From contig OZ245046.1 in assembly GCA_965224245.1 (NCBI GenBank), positions 3,520,001 to 3,584,000 on the forward strand: DNA of 64,000 nt, read 5' to 3'. The position numbers and the translations under genes are program-made. The stretch's first letter is position 1. Each line of letters starts with the position of its first letter. This document shows positions 11,487 through 59,934 of the stretch, piece after piece. The notes under the pieces are model-generated. The model saw only the letters and a list, made by a program, of their open reading frames with translations. It searched no databases and was not told the DNA's origin. This DNA comes from Candidatus Eiseniibacteriota bacterium (GTDB taxonomy: Bacteria > Eisenbacteria > RBG-16-71-46 > CAZAMP01).

Positions 11487-12622
11487 GGGGCGGACCCCGC
11501 GGGAATCGGGGCGCCGCGCCTCGCGAGCGCCGAGGCGTACAGCTCGTCGTGCCGCGCGACGATCACGTCACGGGCGAGCGCGGTCACCGCCCACCGGCGA
11601 GCGGCGTTTCCGAGAGACGCGCGGGCGTCCGGATCGCGGGCGAGCTCGGACAGTGCGGCCGCCAGCGCGGTGGAGTCGCCCGGTGGCACCAGTCGTCCCG
11701 TCTCTCCGTCGGTGATCATGTCCGGAAGCACGCTCACGTCGCTCGCGACGACCGGGAGCCCCGACGCCATCAGCTCGCCGCCGATCCGACAGATCGCCTC
11801 GGATCCGGTGGATGCGACGACCCCCACGTCGAGCGCCGCGAGGACGGTCCGAACGTCCTCGAGACGCCCCACGAAACGAACCCGGTCGGCGATCCCGAGC
11901 TCGCCGGTCCACTCCCGGACGTCCCGCTCGGTCAGCTGAGCCGGCTCTCCGGCGATGACCAGCACCTTCGGGATCGGTCCCGCGACGAGACGAGCCCACG
12001 CCTCGAGGAGAACGCGGTGCCCCTTCACCGGGGAGAGGCGGGCGACGATGCCGGCCACGAACGCGTCGTCCGGCAGCCCGAGCGACCGACGCGCCTCGGC
12101 GCGCTGGCCGGGCGTGAACGGGACGAAACGGGCCGCGTCGATCGCGCCCGGGATGACGGCCGGGTCCCGTCCGGTCATCGTGCGGACCGGCGGCGCCAGG
12201 AAACGCGCGGGCACCGCGACCGCGTCCGCGCGGCGATACAGCCATCGGTTCCACGGACTGGGCTGTGGGCGGCGGACCTCGCCCTTGGTCCGCACCAGCG
12301 CGACCGCCGGCGCTCCGGCGCTCCTCGCGATCTCGGCCGCTGCATGCCCCGCCCCCGTGTGTACGTGCACGACGTCCGGCCTCTCCCGGGCGAGATGGCG
12401 CGCGAGATCGCGGGCCAGCCGGAGCTGGCCGGTCACGCCGCGCGAGATCGGGACGGCCAGGGGCACGCCGGCGGCCCGTGCGCGCTCGGCGGACGGGCTG
12501 TCGGCCAGCGCGCAGACCGTCACCCGACGTCCGGTCCGGTGCTGGGCGGTGGCGAGATCGATCGCGTAGGCGGCGATCGCGCTCCACCAGCGAACGGCCA
12601 CCACGTGTGCGACGTGAACCAT
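11483..12622 (-). CDS. Glycosyltransferase family 4
   Basis: ARLSPVKGH, SEAICRIGGELMASGLPVV, GETGRLV. Confidence 0.88.
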   Translation of the reverse strand: MVHVAHVVAVRWWSAIAAYAIDLATAQHRTGRRVTVCALADSPSAERARAAGVPLAVPISRGVTGQLRLARDLARHLARERPDVVHVHTGAGHAAAEIARSAGAPAVALVRTKGEVRRPQPSPWNRWLYRRADAVAVPARFLAPPVRTMTGRDPAVIPGAIDAARFVPFTPGQRAEARRSLGLPDDAFVAGIVARLSPVKGHRVLLEAWARLVAGPIPKVLVIAGEPAQLTERDVREWTGELGIADRVRFVGRLEDVRTVLAALDVGVVASTGSEAICRIGGELMASGLPVVASDVSVLPDMITDGETGRLVPPGDSTALAAALSELARDPDARASLGNAARRWAVTALARDVIVARHDELYASALARRGAPIPAGSAP

Positions 12623-12715
12623 GACGGGACAGGATACTGGACCCCGTGCCCGCCATCCATGCCGGCAGGGCGGTGAGGCCGGTGCGTGGTTCGGCGGGGT
12701 GGGTCCGGGGACGGG

Positions 12716-13597
12716 TCAGCTCGACACGCGACCGGCGGTGCTCGGGAGGGCCAGGCGCGCGTTCGGGGAGCCGGGGCCACGAACCCGGCGCCACCACGAG
12801 CCGACACGCCCGCGCAGCGAGTAGTGACGTTCCCAGGCGCGCTCGATGTCCGGAAGGCACCGCATCGCCTCGCGGTACCCGACCTCGATCATCGCCTCGG
12901 CCTCGCGGATCTCGAACGAGTTGAACTCGCTCAGGTCGGGCTTGATGCACACGTCGGCGGCCCGCTCGGACACCGCGGCGTTCTGCTGTGCGACGAGCCC
13001 CATCGTATGCATGATCAGCGCGAGCATGTGGCGGGGTGGATTGGCGCGCTTGCGGTGAAAGCCGAGGTTCACGCCGACCACGAGGGGCGGCTCGTAGGCC
13101 TCGAGCGCGCGGGTCGGCATGTACTCGACGAGGCCGCCGTCGACGTACAGCGAGCCGTTCATCTCGACCGGAGCATAGATCTGCGGAATGCACGACGAGG
13201 CCTGGGCGGCCTTGGCCACGGGGCCCGAGTCGAGCGCCTCCTCGCGGCCGTCCTGCAGGTTCGTGACGATGATCGAGAGCGGGATCCGCAGCTGCTCGAA
13301 GGTGACGTCTCCGATCGCGTCGACGACCATCCGGTACAGCTTGTCGGAGGACAGGAAGCCCAGCCGCCGAAAGCCGATGCGGCCCAGGTCGGTCAGCTTC
13401 ATGCTGGACGCCTTGGCCGCGATCTCCTCGATCGGGATCCCGGCGCAGTAGTACGCGGCCACGATCGATCCGCCGCTGGTGGCCGCCACCCGATCGATGA
13501 CGATACCCGCCTCGTCCAGCGCCTTCAGCACGCCGATGTGAGCCACGCTCTTGGCCGTGCCCCCCGAGAGGGCCAGTCCAATGTGAATGGGTCTCAT
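12716..13597 (-). CDS. Patatin-like phospholipase
   Basis: LALSGGTAKSVAHIGVL, ATSGG nucleophile elbow, YVDGG. Confidence 0.9.
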   Translation of the reverse strand: MRPIHIGLALSGGTAKSVAHIGVLKALDEAGIVIDRVAATSGGSIVAAYYCAGIPIEEIAAKASSMKLTDLGRIGFRRLGFLSSDKLYRMVVDAIGDVTFEQLRIPLSIIVTNLQDGREEALDSGPVAKAAQASSCIPQIYAPVEMNGSLYVDGGLVEYMPTRALEAYEPPLVVGVNLGFHRKRANPPRHMLALIMHTMGLVAQQNAAVSERAADVCIKPDLSEFNSFEIREAEAMIEVGYREAMRCLPDIERAWERHYSLRGRVGSWWRRVRGPGSPNARLALPSTAGRVSS

Positions 13598-50636: not shown

Positions 50637-52546
<1,910 letters not shown>

Positions 52547-52550
<4 letters not shown>

Positions 52551-53308
52551 ACCTGACACTCAAGGTGTGGCGCCAGAAGAACGCGGACGCACCGGGGCGA
52601 CTCGAGACCTACGAGGCGCGCGACGTCAGCCCCGACAGCTCGTTCCTGGAGATGCTCGACGTCGTCAACGAGGGGCTCGAGGCTCAGGGACAGGAGCCCA
52701 TCGCGTTCGATCACGACTGCCGCGAGGGCATCTGCGGCGCCTGCTCGTTGATGATCGACGGCGTCGCCCACGGTCCGCAACGCGGCACGACGGCCTGCCA
52801 GCTCCACATGCGCACGTTCCGCGACGGCGACACGATCGTGGTCGAGCCGTGGCGGGCCCGTGCGTTCCCGCCGGTGAAGGACCTCGTGGTGGACCGCAGC
52901 GCGTTCGATCGCATCATCGAAGCAGGCGGGTACGTCAGCGTGAACACCGGGGCGGCCCAGGACGCCAACCTGATCCCCATCGGCAAGGAGAGCGCCGACG
53001 ATGCGTTCGACGCCGCGGCGTGCATCGGCTGCGGGGCATGTGTCGCGAGCTGCAAGAACGCGAGCGCGATGCTGTTCGTCAGCGCCAAGATCTCTCACCT
53101 CGGACACCTCCCCCAGGGACAGCCCGAGCGGGCTCGCCGTGCCCAGGCCATGGTCGCACAGATGGACGCCGAGGGGTTCGGCGGATGCACGAACCAGGGC
53201 GAGTGCGAAGCGGTGTGCCCGAAGGAGATCAAGATGACGAACATCTCGCGGATGAACGCGGACTTCGTCCGGGCGAGCTTCGGGTCGAGCCTGGCCGGCG
53301 GGGGCTAG
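52547..53308 (+). CDS. sdhB: Succinate dehydrogenase/fumarate reductase iron-sulfur subunit
   Basis: [33 protein letters not shown]. Confidence 0.96.
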
Positions 53309-53335
53309 CCGGCGGGGTCGAGCTCGTTCCGCTTC

Positions 53336-53358
53336 GGCCCCGCGCCCTTCGCGGGGCC
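53336..53358. terminator. Hairpin between the convergent sdhB and CHAT genes
   Basis: GGCCCCGCG-N5-CGCGGGGCC. Confidence 0.5.
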
Positions 53359-53371
53359 CGACGCGTGCCGG

Positions 53372-56173
53372 TCAGGCCCCGTGCACGGCGAACGCACCCC
53401 AGTAGAACGGGTGCGTCCAGGACTCGCGGACCCGCTCGCGCGCCCGCCGGAGGACGAGGGCGGTGTCGGCACCCGGCGACCCGGCGGAGAGGCCGTCGTA
53501 GAACGCATCCATCAGCGCCGCGGTGGCCCGATCGTGCACACGCCAGTGGCTGGCCACGAGCTGCCGTGCGCCGGCCGCGAGGAATGCGTGCGTGACTCCC
53601 GATAGATCGTCGCCGTCGCCGGTGAACGTCTGCCCGCTCGCGCACGCGCTCAGGACGACCAGATCGCATGCGATCCGGCGATCCATCAGGTCGGCCACGA
53701 AGAGGGCGCCGTCCAGCGTGCTCAGCCGGGAGAACAGCGGGTTGTCGTCCCGGAAGACGCCGTGCGTGGACAGGTGCAGCAGGCCGTCGCGCTCGGCCAC
53801 GGCGAGCACGTCGTCGGTCGTCGGATCCACGAGCACCGACGGCCCCAGCGCCTCCAGGCGCGCGGCCACCGCCCGAAGCTCACGCGGCACCGATGCGGGC
53901 CCTCCGTCGACGAGCCCCGCGATCGTCACGCGACGCGACGCCGCCCGGCGGCGCCTGGGACGGACCAGATCCACCGTGGGCGAGCGCGCGATCGTCCAGC
54001 GCTCGTCCGCATAGCATCGCCCATCGTGAAGACATTCGAACGGAACGTGGTGGGTCGGACCGTCGGGCACGATCACGAGACGACCACACGTGAGACGGTC
54101 CTCGATCGGTCGGAGGAGCGTGTCGTAGAGACGGCGCAGGACCTCGTCGGCGGCGCGACGCTGGAACGCCACGTTGCCCATCCGATCGGCGGCCAGGGCC
54201 ATCGTGTCGAGCTGATGGCGAACACGCCCCACGAGATCGACGAGCGTCGAGGTGCTCTCCTCGATCGTCCGGTGCCACACGTCGTTGCGTGAGATCCCGA
54301 TCACGAGCAGGGACTCTGGCAGGACGGTGTAGGACAGGACCAGGGTGTCCGCGGGCAACCGTCGTCGAACCTGGTCCAGATCGCGCCGCCGCACGGTGCG
54401 CGGCCCGGAGTCGTGGGCTCCCGCGTCTCGCCGTCGCTCCGCGGATGCGATCCGGCGCTCGAGTCGCGTGATCCGACGGCGCAGGCGCTCCCCCTCCCGC
54501 CCGAGTGCGCGCTCCGGCTCGTCGTACTCCCAGCTCTCGAGCCGGCGTGTCAACGCACCGAGTCGCACGCGTGCGTCGTCGTGCGCCGCGCTCGTGCCGC
54601 CCCGTGTCCGCCGCGCGTGAAGGCGCTCGCGGTGGGCGCGTCCTCGGACCTCCTCGACGACGTCCAGGAGCACGGCCGGATCCACGCGGCGCCGCTCCGC
54701 CAGCAGCGCCGCGAGCTCACGATAGGCGCGCGCATGGGTCGCGAACGCGTGCGCGCGATAGGCGATGCCGGGGATCGTCAAGCGCTCGGACTCCGCCGCG
54801 GTGATGGCCCGCTTCAGCGCCCGGCGGGCCTCGCGATCGTCGTGCCGGCGTCGGGCCACGCTCCCCACGGCCAGCCAGTAGCTCGCCTGCGCGCCAGCGG
54901 GAAGTCGGGATACGGCATCACGTCCTCCGGCGAGCGTCCTCGCCGCGAGGTCGGCGCGTCCCTGTGCGAGCCGGCACGCCGAGACGACCTCGCGCGCCTC
55001 GAGCTCCGCGCGAACGTCCCCGGTCTTCGCGAACCGCACCCGCGCGAGACCGGCCAGCTCGAGCGCGGGGGTGAGGTCCCCGGCCTCGAGCCGCGCCCGG
55101 GCGGCCGCCAGGCGACACGTCGCCAGCCGCGACCAGTATCGCTCGTGACGGAAGTACGCAAGCGGGACCTCCAGCCGCTCGGCGGCCCGCCGCGCGTGGC
55201 CGGCACGGACCAGCGCCCGCGCCTCGGTGACGCGGGCGAGCATGGCATCGACGACCAGGCCCTCGTCGTCGAACGCGGTCGTCCCCGCCCGGGCCTCCTC
55301 GATCGCGTCGCGCGGCATGCCCAGATCCAGAAAGGTGTTGGCGCGCTGCAGCCGTGCCGCCGCGACCATGTCGCGCGCGTCCATCGACTCGAAGAGATCG
55401 CTGCATGCTTCCAGACAGCCGAGGGCGGCTCGGTAGTCGCCGAGCACGCGCTCGAGGTGGGATCGGTTGTACAGGGCCTGTGCGCGGATGCGCGACAGCC
55501 CGAGGCGCTCGCTCTCCTCCTCGGCTTCGCGAAACCGCTCGCGCGCCTCGCGCACCCGATCGAGATTGGTCGCCGCCACCCCGCGGTTGACCAGGAGCGA
55601 GACGGTGGTGGCGTCGGCGATCCCGGCCTTCTCGAACTCGGCTCGGGCGCGCCGGTAGAGACCGTCCGCGTCGGCATGGCGCTCCTGGTGATAGGCCAGG
55701 TTGCCGAGGTTCATGTAGAGCTTGGCCAGATACACCCGGTCGCCCGCGCTCCGAAGCAGTCGCTCCGCTCGACGCGCCGCGCGGTTGGACGCCCGCGTAT
55801 CGCCCAGCACCCCCAGCACACCGACCCAGCCCACGAGGATCTCGCCGAGCAGGCGATCGGCGCCCGCGCGCTCAGCGTGCGCGCTGGCGTCGCGGTAGGC
55901 GGCGTTCGCATCCGCGAGGTGTCCGGCGTAGATGGAGGCCTCGGCGCGAGCCCGGGCCGCGATCGCCCGGACGTGAGCGTCGTCGAGACCGTCGGTGGCG
56001 GCGGTGAGGGCGTCGGCAATGGCCAGGGCCGCCGCCGGGTCCTTTCCGAGAAGCGACGCCACACGATCCCGAACCGATGTGGCAACGTCGAGGGTTGGCG
56101 GAGGTCCGGTGCCGAGGTGCGCGATCAGCGCGCCCGGCGCGAGGGCGGCAGGGTCGATGCCGGATGACGTCAC
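53372..56173 (-). CDS. TPR-CHAT (caspase-like) protease
   Basis: N-terminal TPRs (YMNLGN, VNRGV, YNRS); CHAT motifs LVIVPDG, HLSTHG (His), VVLSACASG (Cys), ASHWRV, HPFYWGAF. Confidence 0.92.
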   Translation of the reverse strand: MTSSGIDPAALAPGALIAHLGTGPPPTLDVATSVRDRVASLLGKDPAAALAIADALTAATDGLDDAHVRAIAARARAEASIYAGHLADANAAYRDASAHAERAGADRLLGEILVGWVGVLGVLGDTRASNRAARRAERLLRSAGDRVYLAKLYMNLGNLAYHQERHADADGLYRRARAEFEKAGIADATTVSLLVNRGVAATNLDRVREARERFREAEEESERLGLSRIRAQALYNRSHLERVLGDYRAALGCLEACSDLFESMDARDMVAAARLQRANTFLDLGMPRDAIEEARAGTTAFDDEGLVVDAMLARVTEARALVRAGHARRAAERLEVPLAYFRHERYWSRLATCRLAAARARLEAGDLTPALELAGLARVRFAKTGDVRAELEAREVVSACRLAQGRADLAARTLAGGRDAVSRLPAGAQASYWLAVGSVARRRHDDREARRALKRAITAAESERLTIPGIAYRAHAFATHARAYRELAALLAERRRVDPAVLLDVVEEVRGRAHRERLHARRTRGGTSAAHDDARVRLGALTRRLESWEYDEPERALGREGERLRRRITRLERRIASAERRRDAGAHDSGPRTVRRRDLDQVRRRLPADTLVLSYTVLPESLLVIGISRNDVWHRTIEESTSTLVDLVGRVRHQLDTMALAADRMGNVAFQRRAADEVLRRLYDTLLRPIEDRLTCGRLVIVPDGPTHHVPFECLHDGRCYADERWTIARSPTVDLVRPRRRRAASRRVTIAGLVDGGPASVPRELRAVAARLEALGPSVLVDPTTDDVLAVAERDGLLHLSTHGVFRDDNPLFSRLSTLDGALFVADLMDRRIACDLVVLSACASGQTFTGDGDDLSGVTHAFLAAGARQLVASHWRVHDRATAALMDAFYDGLSAGSPGADTALVLRRARERVRESWTHPFYWGAFAVHGA

Positions 56174-56223
56174 CGGGATCGCGAGCCTCTCTGAGGCGTG
56201 GCGCGACTACGCGGACACGCCGG

Positions 56224-56928
56224 TCATGCCTGCTCGTCGATCCGGAACGGTGGGATGTGGACCCGATCGGACCCGAGCGTGAACGTGAGCTCGAACTCGC
56301 CCCAGGGTAGGGCATCGAAGACGAACTCGCCAAACTCGTTCAGGTCGGCCTCGGTCGGGGTCGAGGATGCGCTCGCGCGAACCGTGACCGTGCGGCGCGG
56401 CGGCAGCTCGTCCGCGGCGGTGGGCGTCACCTGACCGCGCAGGACGCAGCGATCGGCCTCGCGGTCGGCCGACACGGAGATCGCATAGGCGTCGGTGTCG
56501 TAGACGAGGAGCCGCGGTGATGCCGACACGGCTCCGCGGACCGCGGCGGACGGCCGGAGCGAATCGGCGACCAGCGTGGCCACGATCTCGCGCAACCCGT
56601 CGGCGATGCGCGCACCGAGACCGGCGGCGGCACGGTCGGACGACGACCGCGCTCCGCGCAGCTGGGAGAGGGCGCGGTTGATGGCGGCGACGTCGGGCGA
56701 CACGTCTCCGGCGACCACGAGGCCGCGGGCGAACCGCACCAGCTCGGCGAGCTCGGCGCGGCATCGCGCACAGCCGGCCAGGTGATCGGTCGTCGCCGCC
56801 GCGACCCGCTCCATGGACGCCTCGGCCGTGTCCATCACGCGGGTCGGCCCGGTCCAGCCGCCGGCCTCCAGCCGGTGCCACGCGACCGCGAACAGCTCGT
56901 CCCAGGTGATGTGCGTGTCGTGACTCAT
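56224..56928 (-). CDS. Putative soluble zinc-binding anti-sigma factor with C-terminal beta-sandwich
   Basis: HLAGCARC = Hx3Cx2C; no TM helix; C-terminal LRGQV...GEFVFDALPWGEFEL; ATGA-coupled to the sigma gene. Confidence 0.75.
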   Translation of the reverse strand: MSHDTHITWDELFAVAWHRLEAGGWTGPTRVMDTAEASMERVAAATTDHLAGCARCRAELAELVRFARGLVVAGDVSPDVAAINRALSQLRGARSSSDRAAAGLGARIADGLREIVATLVADSLRPSAAVRGAVSASPRLLVYDTDAYAISVSADREADRCVLRGQVTPTAADELPPRRTVTVRASASSTPTEADLNEFGEFVFDALPWGEFELTFTLGSDRVHIPPFRIDEQA

Positions 56929-57566
56929 GTCCGCTCCTCGGTCGGCCGCGCCGCCAGAGTGGGAGACCCGGAAGGTCTCTCGTCCTTCGCGCGTGTGGAC
57001 CCTCGGCCGGGCGGCGATGATACCTCCCCGAAGCGTTTTTGGAGCTTCTTGAGGCACCGGCCGCGGCTGGGCCCGATGCTGCCGATCGGGATCTCGGTGC
57101 GCGCGACGATCTCCTCGTAGCTGGGCCGCGGCTCCTCGAGAAAGAGCGCGCTCAGGAGCTCGCGACATCGTGGATCGAGAGAGGTCACGAGCGACCGGAG
57201 TCGCTTCGCGTCCTCGACGGCCATGATGACCTCCTCGACGTCCGGGGCCTCGTCGGGCATGTCGCCCACGTCACGGTCCGCGTCGTCCGCGGCCAGGTCG
57301 GGCCGGCGGCGGGTGGCGATGTCGAGGGCGGCCCGGTAGGCGATGCTGTAGATCCACGAGGGGAGCTTGTCGAGGTCGCGGAGGCGATCGATGGCGCGAA
57401 ACGCGGCCAGCCAGGCGTTCTGCTCGGCGTCCTCCCGGTCGTCCGCCGAGAGCCGGACCCGCCGGCAGGCCACGCGCACGAGCCCACCGTAGTCCTCCAT
57501 GATCGTCCGCCAGGACGCCTCGTCGCCGGCGATCAACGATTCGATGTCGACGTCCCGTCGCTCCAC
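56925..57566 (-). CDS. ECF RNA polymerase sigma factor
   Basis: GDEASW, EDAEQNAW, LPSWI (region 2); LDPRCREL, SYEEI, IGSIGPSRGRCLKKL (region 4). Confidence 0.93.
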   Translation of the reverse strand: MERRDVDIESLIAGDEASWRTIMEDYGGLVRVACRRVRLSADDREDAEQNAWLAAFRAIDRLRDLDKLPSWIYSIAYRAALDIATRRRPDLAADDADRDVGDMPDEAPDVEEVIMAVEDAKRLRSLVTSLDPRCRELLSALFLEEPRPSYEEIVARTEIPIGSIGPSRGRCLKKLQKRFGEVSSPPGRGSTRAKDERPSGSPTLAARPTEERT

Positions 57567-57728
57567 GAGTCCCCCGGTCCCCGCCTGGTTGGTGACGCAC
57601 GCGCTCCGTCGACTCTACGTGAGCGACCGAAAACGGGTCAAACCAGCCGGCAGAGATCGGGGTTTCTCGTCGTCCCTGGTATCATTCACGGCATGCCCGG
57701 CATCTGCCTCGGTGGGGGGAGCCACGCC

Positions 57729-59231
57729 ATGTCCCGGTTCATCCGTTCGATCGCCACATCGTCGCTGCTGGTGGCAGGTTCCGCATCGGCGGACCACCAC
57801 GAGCCCTATCCGCCGGATCAGGTGATTCTCCACCTCTACCCGGACTACGACATCAGCGAGGTCAACGAGCGGTGGATGACCACCACGCTCTCGTCGATTC
57901 CGGGCACCGATCTCTACGTCGTTCAGACGCCCACCTACCCCAAGGACCTCGAGGGCTACACGGACCTCATGGAGGCCGAGGACGTCGCCATCATGACGGC
58001 CGAGCCCAACTGGACCCAGGGCACCCCCGAGAGCGTGCGCCAGATGGTGCTGATCGCGGTGGGCGGCGACTACGTGGACTTCGAGGACCAGGGGCTCGGC
58101 GAGCGGATCGGTCTGGACCCCGCGCACGCTCTCAGCACGGGCGCCGGCACCACCATCGCCCTCCTCGACACGGGGGTCGATCCGATGCACGACGCGTTCG
58201 TGGGTCGGCTGCGTCCCGACGGGCTGGACACCGTCGACGACGACACGACGCCCTGGGAGGTGTCGAACGGCATCGACGACGACCTCGACGGCACGATCGA
58301 CGGGGGCTTCGGCCACGGATCCATGGTGGGCGGCATCCTCGCCCTGACCGCCCCCGACGCCGAGATCCTGCCCGTCCGCGTGCTCGACGACGAGGGACGC
58401 GGGTCCACCTGGGACATCCTGGAGGGCCTCGCCCACGTGATCTCGGCCGGCGACGTGGACGTGATCAACATGAGCTTCGGCGTTCCCGACCACGTCGAGT
58501 CGCTGGCGGCACTCGTCGTCCAGGCCGACGTCGCCGGCATCGTCATGGTGGCCGGGGCGGGTAACGGCTCGTCGGAGGAGCCCGCCTACTTCCCGGCCCG
58601 GCACTCCAGCGTGCTGATGGTGACGGCGCTCGACTCCACCGACGTCAAGGCCGACTTCGCCGACTGGAACGTGCTGGTGGACGTCTCCGCGCCGGGCACC
58701 GGCGTTCGCAGCGCCTATCCCGGCAACGGCTGGGCGCTCGGCAGCGGCTGCTCGTTCGCGACGCCGTTCGTGGCCGCCGAGGCCGCGCTGGTCCGGAGCA
58801 CGAGCCCGCTCGCGTCGACCTGGGAGATCCGTTCCGCCGTCCGGGGCGGCGTCGTCCCGATCGATCACCTCCCGGGGAACGCCCCGTACGTGGGACAGCT
58901 GGGGACCGGTCGCATCTACGTTCCGGGCTCGCTCCCGGGGACGGTGGCGGTGGACGATCCCCGCGGCGGCCCCGGCTCGCGGCTCTTCTCCCTCGGTCCC
59001 AATCCGACGCGAGGCGTCGTGCGCATCCGCGGCCTCGGGGGCCGATCGATCGACCGGGCCGAGGTCTACGACCTCGCCGGACGGCGCGTCGTCGTCCTCG
59101 AGGGTCCGGCGAGCACGATCGGGTGGGACGGCCGGACCGGATCCGGGCTCCTGGCGGCGCCCGGCATCTACGTCGTGAAGGTCACGAGCGGATCGACGAC
59201 GGCATCGTCACGGCTCCAGGTCGTTCGCTGA
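57729..59231 (+). CDS. Secreted S8 subtilase with FlgD/T9SS-like C-terminal domain
   Basis: Signal peptide; LLDTG, GHGS, AGAGN, GCSFATP (full triad); PNP...YDLAGRRV...WDG...GIY tail. Confidence 0.9.
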   Translation: MSRFIRSIATSSLLVAGSASADHHEPYPPDQVILHLYPDYDISEVNERWMTTTLSSIPGTDLYVVQTPTYPKDLEGYTDLMEAEDVAIMTAEPNWTQGTPESVRQMVLIAVGGDYVDFEDQGLGERIGLDPAHALSTGAGTTIALLDTGVDPMHDAFVGRLRPDGLDTVDDDTTPWEVSNGIDDDLDGTIDGGFGHGSMVGGILALTAPDAEILPVRVLDDEGRGSTWDILEGLAHVISAGDVDVINMSFGVPDHVESLAALVVQADVAGIVMVAGAGNGSSEEPAYFPARHSSVLMVTALDSTDVKADFADWNVLVDVSAPGTGVRSAYPGNGWALGSGCSFATPFVAAEAALVRSTSPLASTWEIRSAVRGGVVPIDHLPGNAPYVGQLGTGRIYVPGSLPGTVAVDDPRGGPGSRLFSLGPNPTRGVVRIRGLGGRSIDRAEVYDLAGRRVVVLEGPASTIGWDGRTGSGLLAAPGIYVVKVTSGSTTASSRLQVVR

Positions 59232-59319
59232 CCCGCCTCGCGACACGCGGTCGCACGAGCCGACTCGCTCCTCGTGGATCCCTCCGCCCACGCCGCGGCC
59301 GGCTTCACCGCGGTGCGTC

Positions 59320-59934
59320 TCACCGCTCCGCGGTCGCGACCACGTCCAGCGATGCGTCCTGGACCTCGCCCAGCTTCAGGAACAGGAACTTCGGACGTGA
59401 GATCGAGTAGTCGTCGAGCCGGACCGGAAACGCGGTGACGGCGCGCAGCGTCGAGGCGTCGGCGGCCAGGGTCAGCGTCACGAGGACCTCGATCCGGCGC
59501 GAGACGCCGTGCAGCGTCAGGGTCCCCGCCATGCGCACGTCGGTCGGCTGGCCGGCCGCGAGCGACGATGGCGGCTCGCCGAGCAGCGACGCGCCGCGGA
59601 ACGTCGCGGTGGGATGGCGATCGGTCTCGAGGTGGTTCTCCCGCATGTCCGCGTTCCGCTTGCCGATGCCGGTGTCGAGACTCGCCATGTCGACCTCGAC
59701 GACCACCGTGATGGAGTCGCCGAGCGCGGCGGGGTCGCACTCGATCACGCCGCTGACGGCGGTCGTCTTCCCGGTGAAAGACTCGAGCGGAGCGTGAGAC
59801 TCGAACTGCACCCGCGATTCGTCACCGGCGGCGATGACGAACCGCTCGGCGTGGGTGGGAATCGCGAACGTGATCACGGTCAGCATCGTGAGCGCATGGA
59901 TCGCCCACCGCCGCGATCGGGCCGGCACGTGCAC
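59320..59934 (-). CDS. YceI family protein
   Basis: SRVQFES, SLDTGIGKRNADMR, LETDRHP, GTLTLHGVSR; GAAGGAG before GTG 59934. Confidence 0.9.
   Translation of the reverse strand: MHVPARSRRWAIHALTMLTVITFAIPTHAERFVIAAGDESRVQFESHAPLESFTGKTTAVSGVIECDPAALGDSITVVVEVDMASLDTGIGKRNADMRENHLETDRHPTATFRGASLLGEPPSSLAAGQPTDVRMAGTLTLHGVSRRIEVLVTLTLAADASTLRAVTAFPVRLDDYSISRPKFLFLKLGEVQDASLDVVATAER

Follow-up and report, generated by a model that had tools for sequence, protein, structure and literature searches.

A conserved operon of an ECF sigma factor, a zinc anti-sigma-like adaptor and a TPR-CHAT protease related to ECF54-type cassettes in Candidatus Eiseniibacteriota

A stretch of 64,000 nucleotides from contig OZ245046.1 of a Candidatus Eiseniibacteriota bacterium, referred to below as the window, was analyzed around a cassette of four genes. 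These code for a sigma factor of the extracytoplasmic function (ECF) type, a small zinc anti-sigma-like protein designated ASF, a protease that combines tetratricopeptide repeats (TPR) with a caspase-like CHAT domain, and a secreted subtilase of the S8 family. The results strongly indicate that the sigma-ASF-CHAT operon is conserved and that ASF is a two-domain adaptor. The parts may together form a cytoplasmic, protease-gated switch for an ECF54-type sigma factor, with an output that includes the secreted subtilase; taken as a whole, this chain is put forward as a serious candidate that falls somewhat short of probable. The features of the cassette are the following.

53372..56173, minus strand: gene of the TPR-CHAT protease, 933 amino acids (aa), GTG start, cytoplasmic.
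54614..56137, minus strand: TPR solenoid of the CHAT protein, residues 13–520, seen as helix pairs in the AlphaFold2 model.
53378..54379, minus strand: caspase-like domain of the CHAT protein, residues 599–932, from the secondary structure of the AlphaFold2 model.
53762–53764 and 53642–53644, minus strand: codons of His804 and Cys844 of CHAT, from the alignment of orthologues.
56224..56928, minus strand: gene of ASF, a soluble two-domain anti-sigma-like adaptor of 234 aa.
56626..56928, minus strand: N-terminal four-helix zinc anti-sigma domain of ASF, residues 1–101, from profile and model.
56761–56784, minus strand: segment containing the codons of H49, C53 and C56 of ASF; H6 is a candidate fourth ligand.
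56239..56592, minus strand: C-terminal beta-sandwich of ASF, residues 113–230, the predicted docking surface for CHAT.
56925..57566, minus strand: gene of the ECF sigma factor, 213 aa.
57612..57641, minus strand: TTGACC-18-TAGAGT, a site resembling a sigma-70-type promoter, located upstream of the start of sigma at a distance of about 45 nt.
57679..57684, plus strand: GTATCA box in the sense of the subtilase, whose ATG follows 50 nt further on.
57729..59231, plus strand: gene of the secreted S8 subtilase, 500 aa, divergent from the sigma gene with 162 bp between the two.
About 57729–57791, 58140–58835 and 58998–59216, plus strand: signal peptide, catalytic domain and sorting domain of the type IX secretion system (T9SS) kind in the subtilase.

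The four genes, with their catalytic residues intact, were confirmed in the open reading frame list, the translations and the family scans, in line with an earlier sequence-only reading of the locus. That reading had described a sigma gene coupled by ATGA to the gene of a soluble Hx3Cx2C protein, with the CHAT gene 50 bp further on, and both junctions were verified: the TGA of the sigma gene overlaps the ATG of ASF as ATGA (56925–56928), and 50 bp separate ASF from the GTG of CHAT. The sigma factor is recognized by Sigma70_r2 of Pfam (E 2.9e-9) and by the sigma70-ECF model TIGR02937, with 64.4 bits (cut-off 42.9) and E 9.6e-18. The solubility ascribed to the Hx3Cx2C protein agrees with its hydropathy. 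No membrane-helix-like stretch was found in sigma, ASF or CHAT, whose maximal Kyte-Doolittle means over 19 residues are 0.71, 0.95 and 1.58, respectively, the last of these falling on predicted beta strands.

Judging from its sequence, ASF is very probably the anti-sigma factor of the adjacent sigma factor. The protein carries the motif H49-x3-C53-x2-C56. Among PDB sequences, the ASF profile matched RsiW (5wuq_C, E 1.5e-6), ChrR (2q1z_B, E 3e-4) and RslA (3hug_B, E 7e-3), and weakly the zinc domain of DdvA from Myxococcus xanthus (8rlz_A, E 0.49); the alignment with ChrR runs from the first His of the profile, in agreement with a ChrR-type pattern. In a library of 1.84 billion representatives, the profile of 14 orthologues matched 14,283 proteins at E ≤ 1e-3, of which 2,915 pass E ≤ 1e-10 and 111 pass E ≤ 1e-30. 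An alignment of 116 rows was assembled from the window protein and 115 of the 150 best matches. The 34 matches that were omitted comprise six giant repeat proteins matching over the sandwich only, and proteins that are not covered at the N-terminus; some six of them start only at about profile position 41–48 and hence have no zinc motif. Each of the residues H6, H49, C53 and C56 is kept in at least 90% of the 116 aligned members, a figure that holds for full-length members only, because 34 of the 150 listed matches were left out. ChrR-type zinc anti-sigma domains have four ligands in this arrangement. Of the rows of the 14 cassette orthologues, at least 90% retain the C-x2-C pair; one orthologue (L034) is without the motif and another (L029) has Glu at the position of the His. 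The family profile, through its RsiW and ChrR matches and its conserved ligands, thus bears out the zinc-type anti-sigma domain that had been assigned from the sequence alone. For a putative binding and inhibition of the cognate sigma factor by ASF, only the ATGA coupling speaks.

In the AlphaFold2 model of ASF (predicted local distance difference test, pLDDT, 84.7), helices at residues 9–22, 36–52, 54–74 and 80–101 are followed by a linker of low confidence (about 102–112) and then by the sandwich at 113–230, which is modelled with a pLDDT of 93–98. Twelve of the 116 aligned members reach the Pfam family zf-HC2 (PF13490) and eight reach CarboxypepD_reg, to which the window protein itself has a weak match (E 0.0012). 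Foldseek gave no match to the ASF model at E ≤ 0.001. A wide structure search returned only generic beta-sandwiches of the Ig/FN3-like kind, the best being 5t7a_B (Z 8.5, root mean square deviation 2.4, 84 aligned residues); this fold search adds nothing on the anti-sigma domain, because the N-terminal domain was barely covered by the comparison. A kinship between the sandwich and the C-terminal domain of the subtilase was considered and rejected, as the two have no similarity. The search for longer or fused relatives of ASF found none, which is weak evidence, and a long open frame at locus L079 was discarded as a fused sigma-ASF protein, as the sigma frame ends at a stop and ASF lies in another frame. 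No match to ASF was found in plasmid records. Look-alike clusters in Chloroflexota, Acidobacteriota, Armatimonadota and Thermodesulfobacteriota (scores 0.96–0.98) are leads only.

The CHAT domain of the protease is matched by Pfam (PF12770, E 1.1e-44, 153.5 bits against a cut-off of 24) over residues 677–932, and the matches to TPR families are weak. H804 and C844 are invariant in 13 orthologues, which upholds the earlier description of a 933-residue protein with an intact His/Cys dyad. The AlphaFold2 model (pLDDT 87.6; predicted template modelling score 0.81) consists of a TPR solenoid at residues 13–520, two long helices and the caspase-like domain at 599–932. Its best structural match is Csx29 of type III-E CRISPR systems (8eey_B; Z 34.3, root mean square deviation 8.5, 575 aligned residues, 12% identity). 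Separases are also matched (5u1s_A with Z 31.0, root mean square deviation 5.5 and 688 aligned residues; 7nj1_A with Z 30.9), and DdvA (8rw5) is among the Foldseek matches at E 6.6e-13. Residues 62–426 (54896–55990) align to the peptide-binding NprR (5dbk_A, Z 28.4) and to phage Rap (8rsu_A, Z 28.3), and the TPR array aligns about equally well to RRNPP receptors and to other TPR proteins. The RRNPP-like TPR fold, a similarity of fold only, may serve as a lead for a peptide ligand and nothing more.

According to the modelling, a physical link between ASF and the CHAT protease by way of the ASF sandwich is likely. The complex of ASF with CHAT residues 186–933 was predicted with our own alignments and three controls, and reached a score of 0.71 (0.72, 0.70 and 0.71 in the individual runs) against 0.25 for the best control. 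The mark used for such scores is reached by 116 of 157 solved complexes and by 2 of 215 mismatched pairs, and is only roughly valid here, given the use of our own alignments. The runs agree in at least 69% of the contacts, with a partner pLDDT of at least 62. In the predicted interface, residues 120–173 and 199–203 of the ASF sandwich lie on the CHAT helices 646–677, with further touches at 325–329, 549–557 and 878. The ASF side includes the top-conserved family residues D122, S123, G165, Q166, P169, G200 and E201, and the mean frequency of the top residue is 0.468 at the interface versus 0.403 in the rest of the domain. Solved complexes of TPR-CHAT proteins exist for Csx29-Csx30 and separase-securin; a pass from the memory of the predictor seems unlikely, because ASF has no detected sequence likeness to partners of the Csx30 or securin type. 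The prediction of a CHAT/anti-sigma complex, which had been proposed as a check of the sequence-only reading, thus supports binding.

ASF relatives were found in 17 of 41 related genomes, the source genome included. Outside the source genome, 20 of the 23 ASF places were taken with about 8 kb on each side and searched by tblastn; three were dropped, two at contig ends and one as the weakest match. CHAT is present at all 20 loci, sigma at 18 and the catalytic domain of the subtilase at 15. One of the two loci without a sigma match begins at a contig start, and the other has no detectable sigma gene. The subtilase is head-to-head with sigma at eight of the 15 loci, directly after CHAT at six and convergent at one; its overlap with the CHAT stop amounts to 4 nt in L034 and to 1 nt in L035. 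A further 21 loci with 1.5-kb flanks contained sigma in 20 cases, CHAT in 17 and the subtilase in nine, and four additional loci contained sigma (4/4), CHAT (4/4) and the subtilase (3/4). One of the 21 loci, L064, shows a fourth arrangement, in which the subtilase precedes sigma and shares its strand. The linkage of the four genes, for which a survey of co-occurrence had been suggested, therefore held in all three samples of loci. The order of the genes is shuffled, yet they are kept together across the phylum in at least four arrangements, which is good evidence that they constitute a real functional unit. At L026, a second and more distant S8 gene (11750–13426) lies right after CHAT, besides the divergent one.

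A survey of the phylum with the ASF profile covered 206 genomes of a single class. The profile matches 202 of them at E ≤ 1e-5, many of these being matches to the anti-sigma domain only; strong matches (best E ≤ 1e-16) were counted by hand in about 83 genomes. Two families with small genomes were without a strong match (f8, 0/41; f11, 0/5), and family f17 has a single positive (genome G083). One named ASF homologue belongs to Candidatus Eisenbacteria. The source genome (6.9 Mb) encodes 16 CHAT-domain proteins of roughly 800–1200 aa, only two of which come with a sigma/ASF pair. The second of these belongs to a paralogous sigma-ASF-CHAT operon (L023 4923–9077, G000:C1 about 4258922–4263076), with a CHAT 43% identical and an ASF 31% identical to those of the window and with a 4-nt overlap of sigma and ASF. 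A large Ser/Thr kinase gene is located near this paralogue and a further APH-like gene downstream of its CHAT. Elsewhere in the genome, an S8 subtilase lies about 5 kb from the CHAT gene at C1:191843, and several CHAT genes have T9SS-tailed neighbours. Public genomes searched with a single CHAT protein yielded two loci only, neither of them useful.

The gene combination is already catalogued as the context of ECF54; what is distinct here is the phylum and a zinc anti-sigma domain that is lacking in one actinobacterial counterpart. The ECF54 context (Huang et al. 2015) is described in the supplement of Casas-Pastor et al. 2021 (PMC7826278), which gives the group as 100% Actinobacteria. According to this source, a protein with a domain of the carboxypeptidase-regulatory-like kind is always encoded at +1, a subtilase at +2 or −1, and a TPR-containing CHAT protein at +3 or −2; the group is annotated with a 'lack of putative AS factor' and with the predicted promoter GTATCAG (−35) / CTCC (−10). 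A review (PMC8999054) files ECF54 under 'proteolysis', as a proposal only. No experimental study of ECF54 turned up among the papers listed by full-text searches on ECF54 and on the CHAT domain with ECF and anti-sigma factors. This agrees with the sequence-only reading, which knew of no characterized mechanism for similar neighbourhoods; the neighbourhood itself had been catalogued before. The window shares with ECF54 the sigma factor, a CarboxypepD_reg-like sandwich protein at +1, the subtilase and the TPR-CHAT protein, all of them conserved in relatives. It differs in the position of CHAT, which is at +2 rather than at +3 or −2, with the subtilase at −1; in an organism that lies outside the Actinobacteria and has a T9SS sorting tail and a SprA-like gene; and in the zinc anti-sigma domain of the ChrR/RsiW kind that its +1 protein carries, whereas ECF54 is described without an anti-sigma factor.

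An actinobacterial cassette was located through its CHAT protein in Nonomuraea gerenzanensis (NZ_LT559118.1), and a 14-kb locus (L076) was covered. Its layout, by which its sigma factor is ECF54-like, is subtilase-sigma-(+1 protein), divergent from the TPR/CHAT gene. The best matches of its sigma, S8 and CHAT proteins in the source genome are the genes of the window (E 9e-21, 5e-7 and 8e-18, respectively), with the paralogous module second best for sigma and CHAT, and the window sigma is the reciprocal best match of the Nonomuraea cassette sigma. The +1 protein (156 aa) aligned to the ASF profile in hhalign with a probability of 96% and an E-value of 3.6e-9, only over the sandwich (ASF 116–217). 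Because the Nonomuraea parts match the window genes and the ASF sandwich, the window cassette is, on sequence grounds, identified as a relative of the ECF54-type cassette that differs in phylum and in the anti-sigma domain. The TPR and CHAT parts of Nonomuraea lie in two overlapping frames (L076 4627–7459), as might result from a frameshift, from an error in sequencing or from a split gene. The record measures 11.85 Mb, is filed among plasmids and has only 10 annotated features. A match in a Streptomyces plasmid (H16) was rejected as a cassette, being a lone CHAT gene.

The site TTGACC-18-TAGAGT is the sole sigma-70-type site in 53200–59500, where shuffled sequences gave a mean of 0.2, and an identical TTGACC-N18-TAGAGT is found upstream of the sigma gene of the paralogue (L023, upstream of 9077). 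Because the same sigma-70-like words and spacing precede both paralogous sigma genes, the sequences suggest that the switch components may be made constitutively. TATAAT-like boxes were seen upstream of sigma in several relatives (L032, L037, L038). The GTATCA box of the window, the complement of TGATAC, resembles the −35 element GTATCAG of ECF54, and its function is putative. On the sigma-sense strand, TGATAC occurs upstream of sigma at 11 of 40 loci (shuffle mean 1.17, maximum 6 in 500), and the opposite orientation occurs at 2 of 40. Its distance to the sigma start is highly variable, from 18 to 159 nt (loci L024–L036, L061, L071); at L030, L036 and L028 it is too near the start codon and is therefore not a sigma-sense −35 element there. 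The divergent genes of L030 and L036 are an amine oxidase and a GT87 glycosyltransferase instead of the subtilase. A relative, L027, contains GTATCAG-N16-CTCC when read in the sense of sigma, and position-wise conservation around the GATAC box reveals just a weak second element about 17–21 nt away.

The subtilase is matched by Peptidase_S8 of Pfam (E 8.7e-33) and has a hydrophobic, signal-peptide-like N-terminus and a type A sorting domain of the T9SS (TIGR04183; 30.3 bits, cut-off 23). Its triad D147/H196/S342 and N279 are invariant in 13 orthologues, in keeping with the complete S8 protease previously read head-to-head with sigma, and the genome encodes a SprA-like T9SS component (PF14349, E 1.6e-22). 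Between the catalytic Asp and His, at residues ~160–195 (58200–58330), lies an acidic insert with the consensus WE..NGIDDDGDG.IDEG in 13 orthologues, which looks like a calcium-binding loop. We consider the subtilase a reasonably probable output of the switch; the case for its control by the sigma factor comes mainly from linkage and from apparent co-transcription in six loci.

In the proposed mechanism, the operon would be made constitutively from a housekeeping-type promoter. The N-terminal zinc domain of ASF would sequester the ECF sigma factor, and its C-terminal beta-sandwich would dock on a pair of helices at the front of the CHAT domain. One soluble complex of sigma, ASF and TPR-CHAT would result, a non-covalent and membrane-free counterpart of DdvA. 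An intracellular cue read by the TPR solenoid would activate the His804/Cys844 dyad, ASF would be cut or destabilized, and the freed sigma factor would transcribe its targets, including the linked subtilase exported by the T9SS. That CHAT releases sigma by cutting ASF upon such a cue is the step that we infer.

Several observations weigh against this mechanism, among them the restriction of the ligand conservation to full-length ASF members. The ASF of the window misses zf-HC2 of Pfam at E ≤ 0.01, and its linker (residues ~95–112), where a cut between the zinc and beta-sandwich domains as imagined in the sequence-only reading would fall, is poorly conserved and modelled with low confidence, so that no cleavage site can be named. 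The CHAT side of the predicted interface is no more conserved than the rest of the protein (0.43 vs 0.475). H804 and C844 lie outside the confident part of the interface, and the prediction therefore depicts docking and not a substrate in the active site. The sigma operon has a sigma-70-like promoter and no sign of autoregulation, the published ECF54 promoter GTATCAG...CTCC (14–20 nt spacer) has 0 matches in the window, and counts of bipartite motifs are at noise level, with no definable −10 partner. The paralogous operon is without a subtilase, its divergent neighbour being a GT28/APH-like gene. The loci were selected through ASF, and the related genomes are not independent. Lastly, the +1 protein of Nonomuraea, representing one actinobacterial cassette, has neither a zinc motif nor room for one, and the link between sandwich and CHAT may therefore serve another purpose.

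The position of the predicted interface away from the dyad, as for a regulator rather than a bound substrate, would also suit an arrangement in which the arrow is reversed. ASF would act like securin, as a double inhibitor that holds sigma with its zinc domain and CHAT with its sandwich. A thiol or redox signal at the zinc site, or turnover of ASF by a housekeeping protease, would release both, whereupon CHAT would cut other cytoplasmic substrates and sigma would act in parallel. The matches of the ASF profile to zinc domains of the ChrR/RsiW kind, which include redox-responsive members, agree with such a double inhibitor. An action of reactive oxygen species on the zinc domain of DdvA is discussed in PMC11506125, which also describes how separase, a top structural neighbour of CHAT, is kept in check by an inhibitor bound to it. 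The cassette has no other conserved candidate for a substrate, however, and the Nonomuraea +1 protein keeps the sandwich without the zinc domain, so that zinc or redox sensing is not a general trigger; we consider the reversed arrangement unlikely. A still simpler possibility is that CHAT and the subtilase are only cargo of the regulon, that is, targets of the sigma factor in, for example, a protein-turnover or feeding response, with sigma being released from ASF in another way. The ECF classification warns that conserved neighbours may be regulators or targets (PMC7826278). The subtilase is apparently co-transcribed with the operon where it follows CHAT, and since it is exported while ASF is cytoplasmic, it is unlikely to be a regulator. 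Yet the predicted specific docking of ASF on CHAT, the family-wide conservation of ASF residues at the docking surface and the almost constant adjacency of ASF and CHAT (20/20), which persists in the absence of the subtilase, all speak against the cargo explanation, which we regard as quite unlikely.

A role in anti-phage defence or abortive infection, in which TPR-CHAT recognizes a phage protein and a sigma-driven defence programme follows, has been proposed for DdvS/DdvA and shown in outline for the type III-E system Craspase, both of which are tied to defence loci (PMC11506125, PMC10028731). The 16 CHAT-domain genes of the genome would fit such a sensor. Against it, PADLOC returned zero matches for CHAT, ASF and sigma, and the cassette is flanked by housekeeping genes (sdhA/sdhB, YceI and EF-G in a Pfam scan) rather than by a defence island, with an even GC content of 0.66–0.73. 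No CRISPR-like array was found anywhere in the 64-kb window and no cas genes among the scanned neighbours of the cassette, as anticipated by the earlier description of a CRISPR-free locus. The conserved partner is a secreted subtilase and no defence system, and presence in about 83 of 206 genomes of the phylum suits a trait of the lineage better than a mobile gene for defence. A phage sensor is therefore judged very improbable. Among the flanking genes, sdhB (52457–53308, plus strand), which codes for an Fe-S protein, converges on CHAT. A 4Fe-4S protein in the vicinity of ECF54 genes is noted in the ECF classification (PMC7826278); the adjacency of sdhB is probably a coincidence in this respect, because it looks like an ordinary succinate dehydrogenase gene and the paralogous locus has none.

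ECF54 is among the sigma-factor groups listed without a known regulator, and its conserved protease neighbours have been noted since 2015. If ASF is both an anti-sigma factor and the handle for CHAT, the control of ECF54-type sigma factors becomes reducible to simple binding and cleavage assays. It is conceivable, though doubtful, that the +1 protein of ECF54-type cassettes at large is the missing regulator, a soluble adaptor between sigma and a caspase-like protease. It would then belong to a membrane-free and CRISPR-free switch found across several phyla, in which an RRNPP-like solenoid senses an intracellular peptide or protein and times the subtilase. A loss or replacement of the zinc domain in Actinobacteria would explain why the group is classed as being without an anti-sigma factor. 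Should ASF indeed combine the roles of anti-sigma factor and handle for CHAT, the cassette would represent a third and the simplest form of TPR-CHAT control of transcription, beside the membrane-bound DdvA and the RNA-guided Craspase, and the connection of CHAT to sigma would be older and more widespread than its CRISPR-linked form.

Among studied systems, DdvS/DdvA is a closer analogue of the cassette than type III-E CRISPR. According to PMC11506125, one chain of DdvA holds a zinc anti-sigma domain together with a membrane helix and a TPR-CHAT of the separase/craspase type that is periplasmic; CHAT-driven proteolysis is proposed there as the step that releases sigma, with the signal unknown (a further paper on DdvS/DdvA is PMC6061681). 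Both systems consist of an ECF sigma factor, a zinc anti-sigma domain and a TPR-CHAT with a His-Cys dyad. DdvA is one transmembrane polypeptide with a dimeric TPR-CHAT in the periplasm, followed by cleavage by RseP (PMC11506125), whereas the window encodes two soluble cytoplasmic proteins from genes 50 bp apart, predicted to be joined by the docking of a beta-sandwich that is absent from DdvA. The regulon of DdvA, as described, is a CBASS (cyclic oligonucleotide-based anti-phage signalling system)/CRISPR island, and the linked gene in the window is a subtilase.

The sequence-only reading had interpreted the cassette as a stand-alone counterpart of type III-E systems, citing that Csx29 cleaves Csx30 and that Csx30 binds a sigma factor. 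These facts are confirmed by PMC10028731, in which Csx30 inhibits CASP-sigma and cleavage by Csx29 is thought to relieve the inhibition; proteolytic control of an anti-sigma factor by a TPR-CHAT protein is demonstrated there for this pair. The comparison holds for a cytoplasmic TPR-CHAT encoded together with an ECF-type sigma and a small sigma-inhibiting protein, and for Csx29 as the best fold match. It fails in that the window is without Cas7-11, a CRISPR array and an RNA trigger, and that the Csx29 family model NF041237 gives the window CHAT 15.6 bits against a cut-off of 300; the ASF profile matched 28 PDB sequences at E ≤ 10, and Csx30 is none of them. The counterpart interpretation thus stands for gene content and fold, and gives way to DdvS/DdvA as the closer analogue.

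The pair of separase and securin resembles the cassette in a TPR or helical solenoid combined with a caspase-like fold, and in a protease held by a small bound partner. It is eukaryotic and of unrelated function, and securin is no beta-sandwich protein, so the likeness is one of fold only. With the class I zinc anti-sigma factors ChrR, RsiW and RslA, ASF shares the His-x3-Cys-x2-Cys motif, an upstream His and a gene that overlaps the preceding sigma gene. It differs from RsiW and RslA by having no transmembrane helix, and from ChrR by having no cupin domain. Unlike all three, its partner domain is a beta-sandwich that is predicted to bind the protease.

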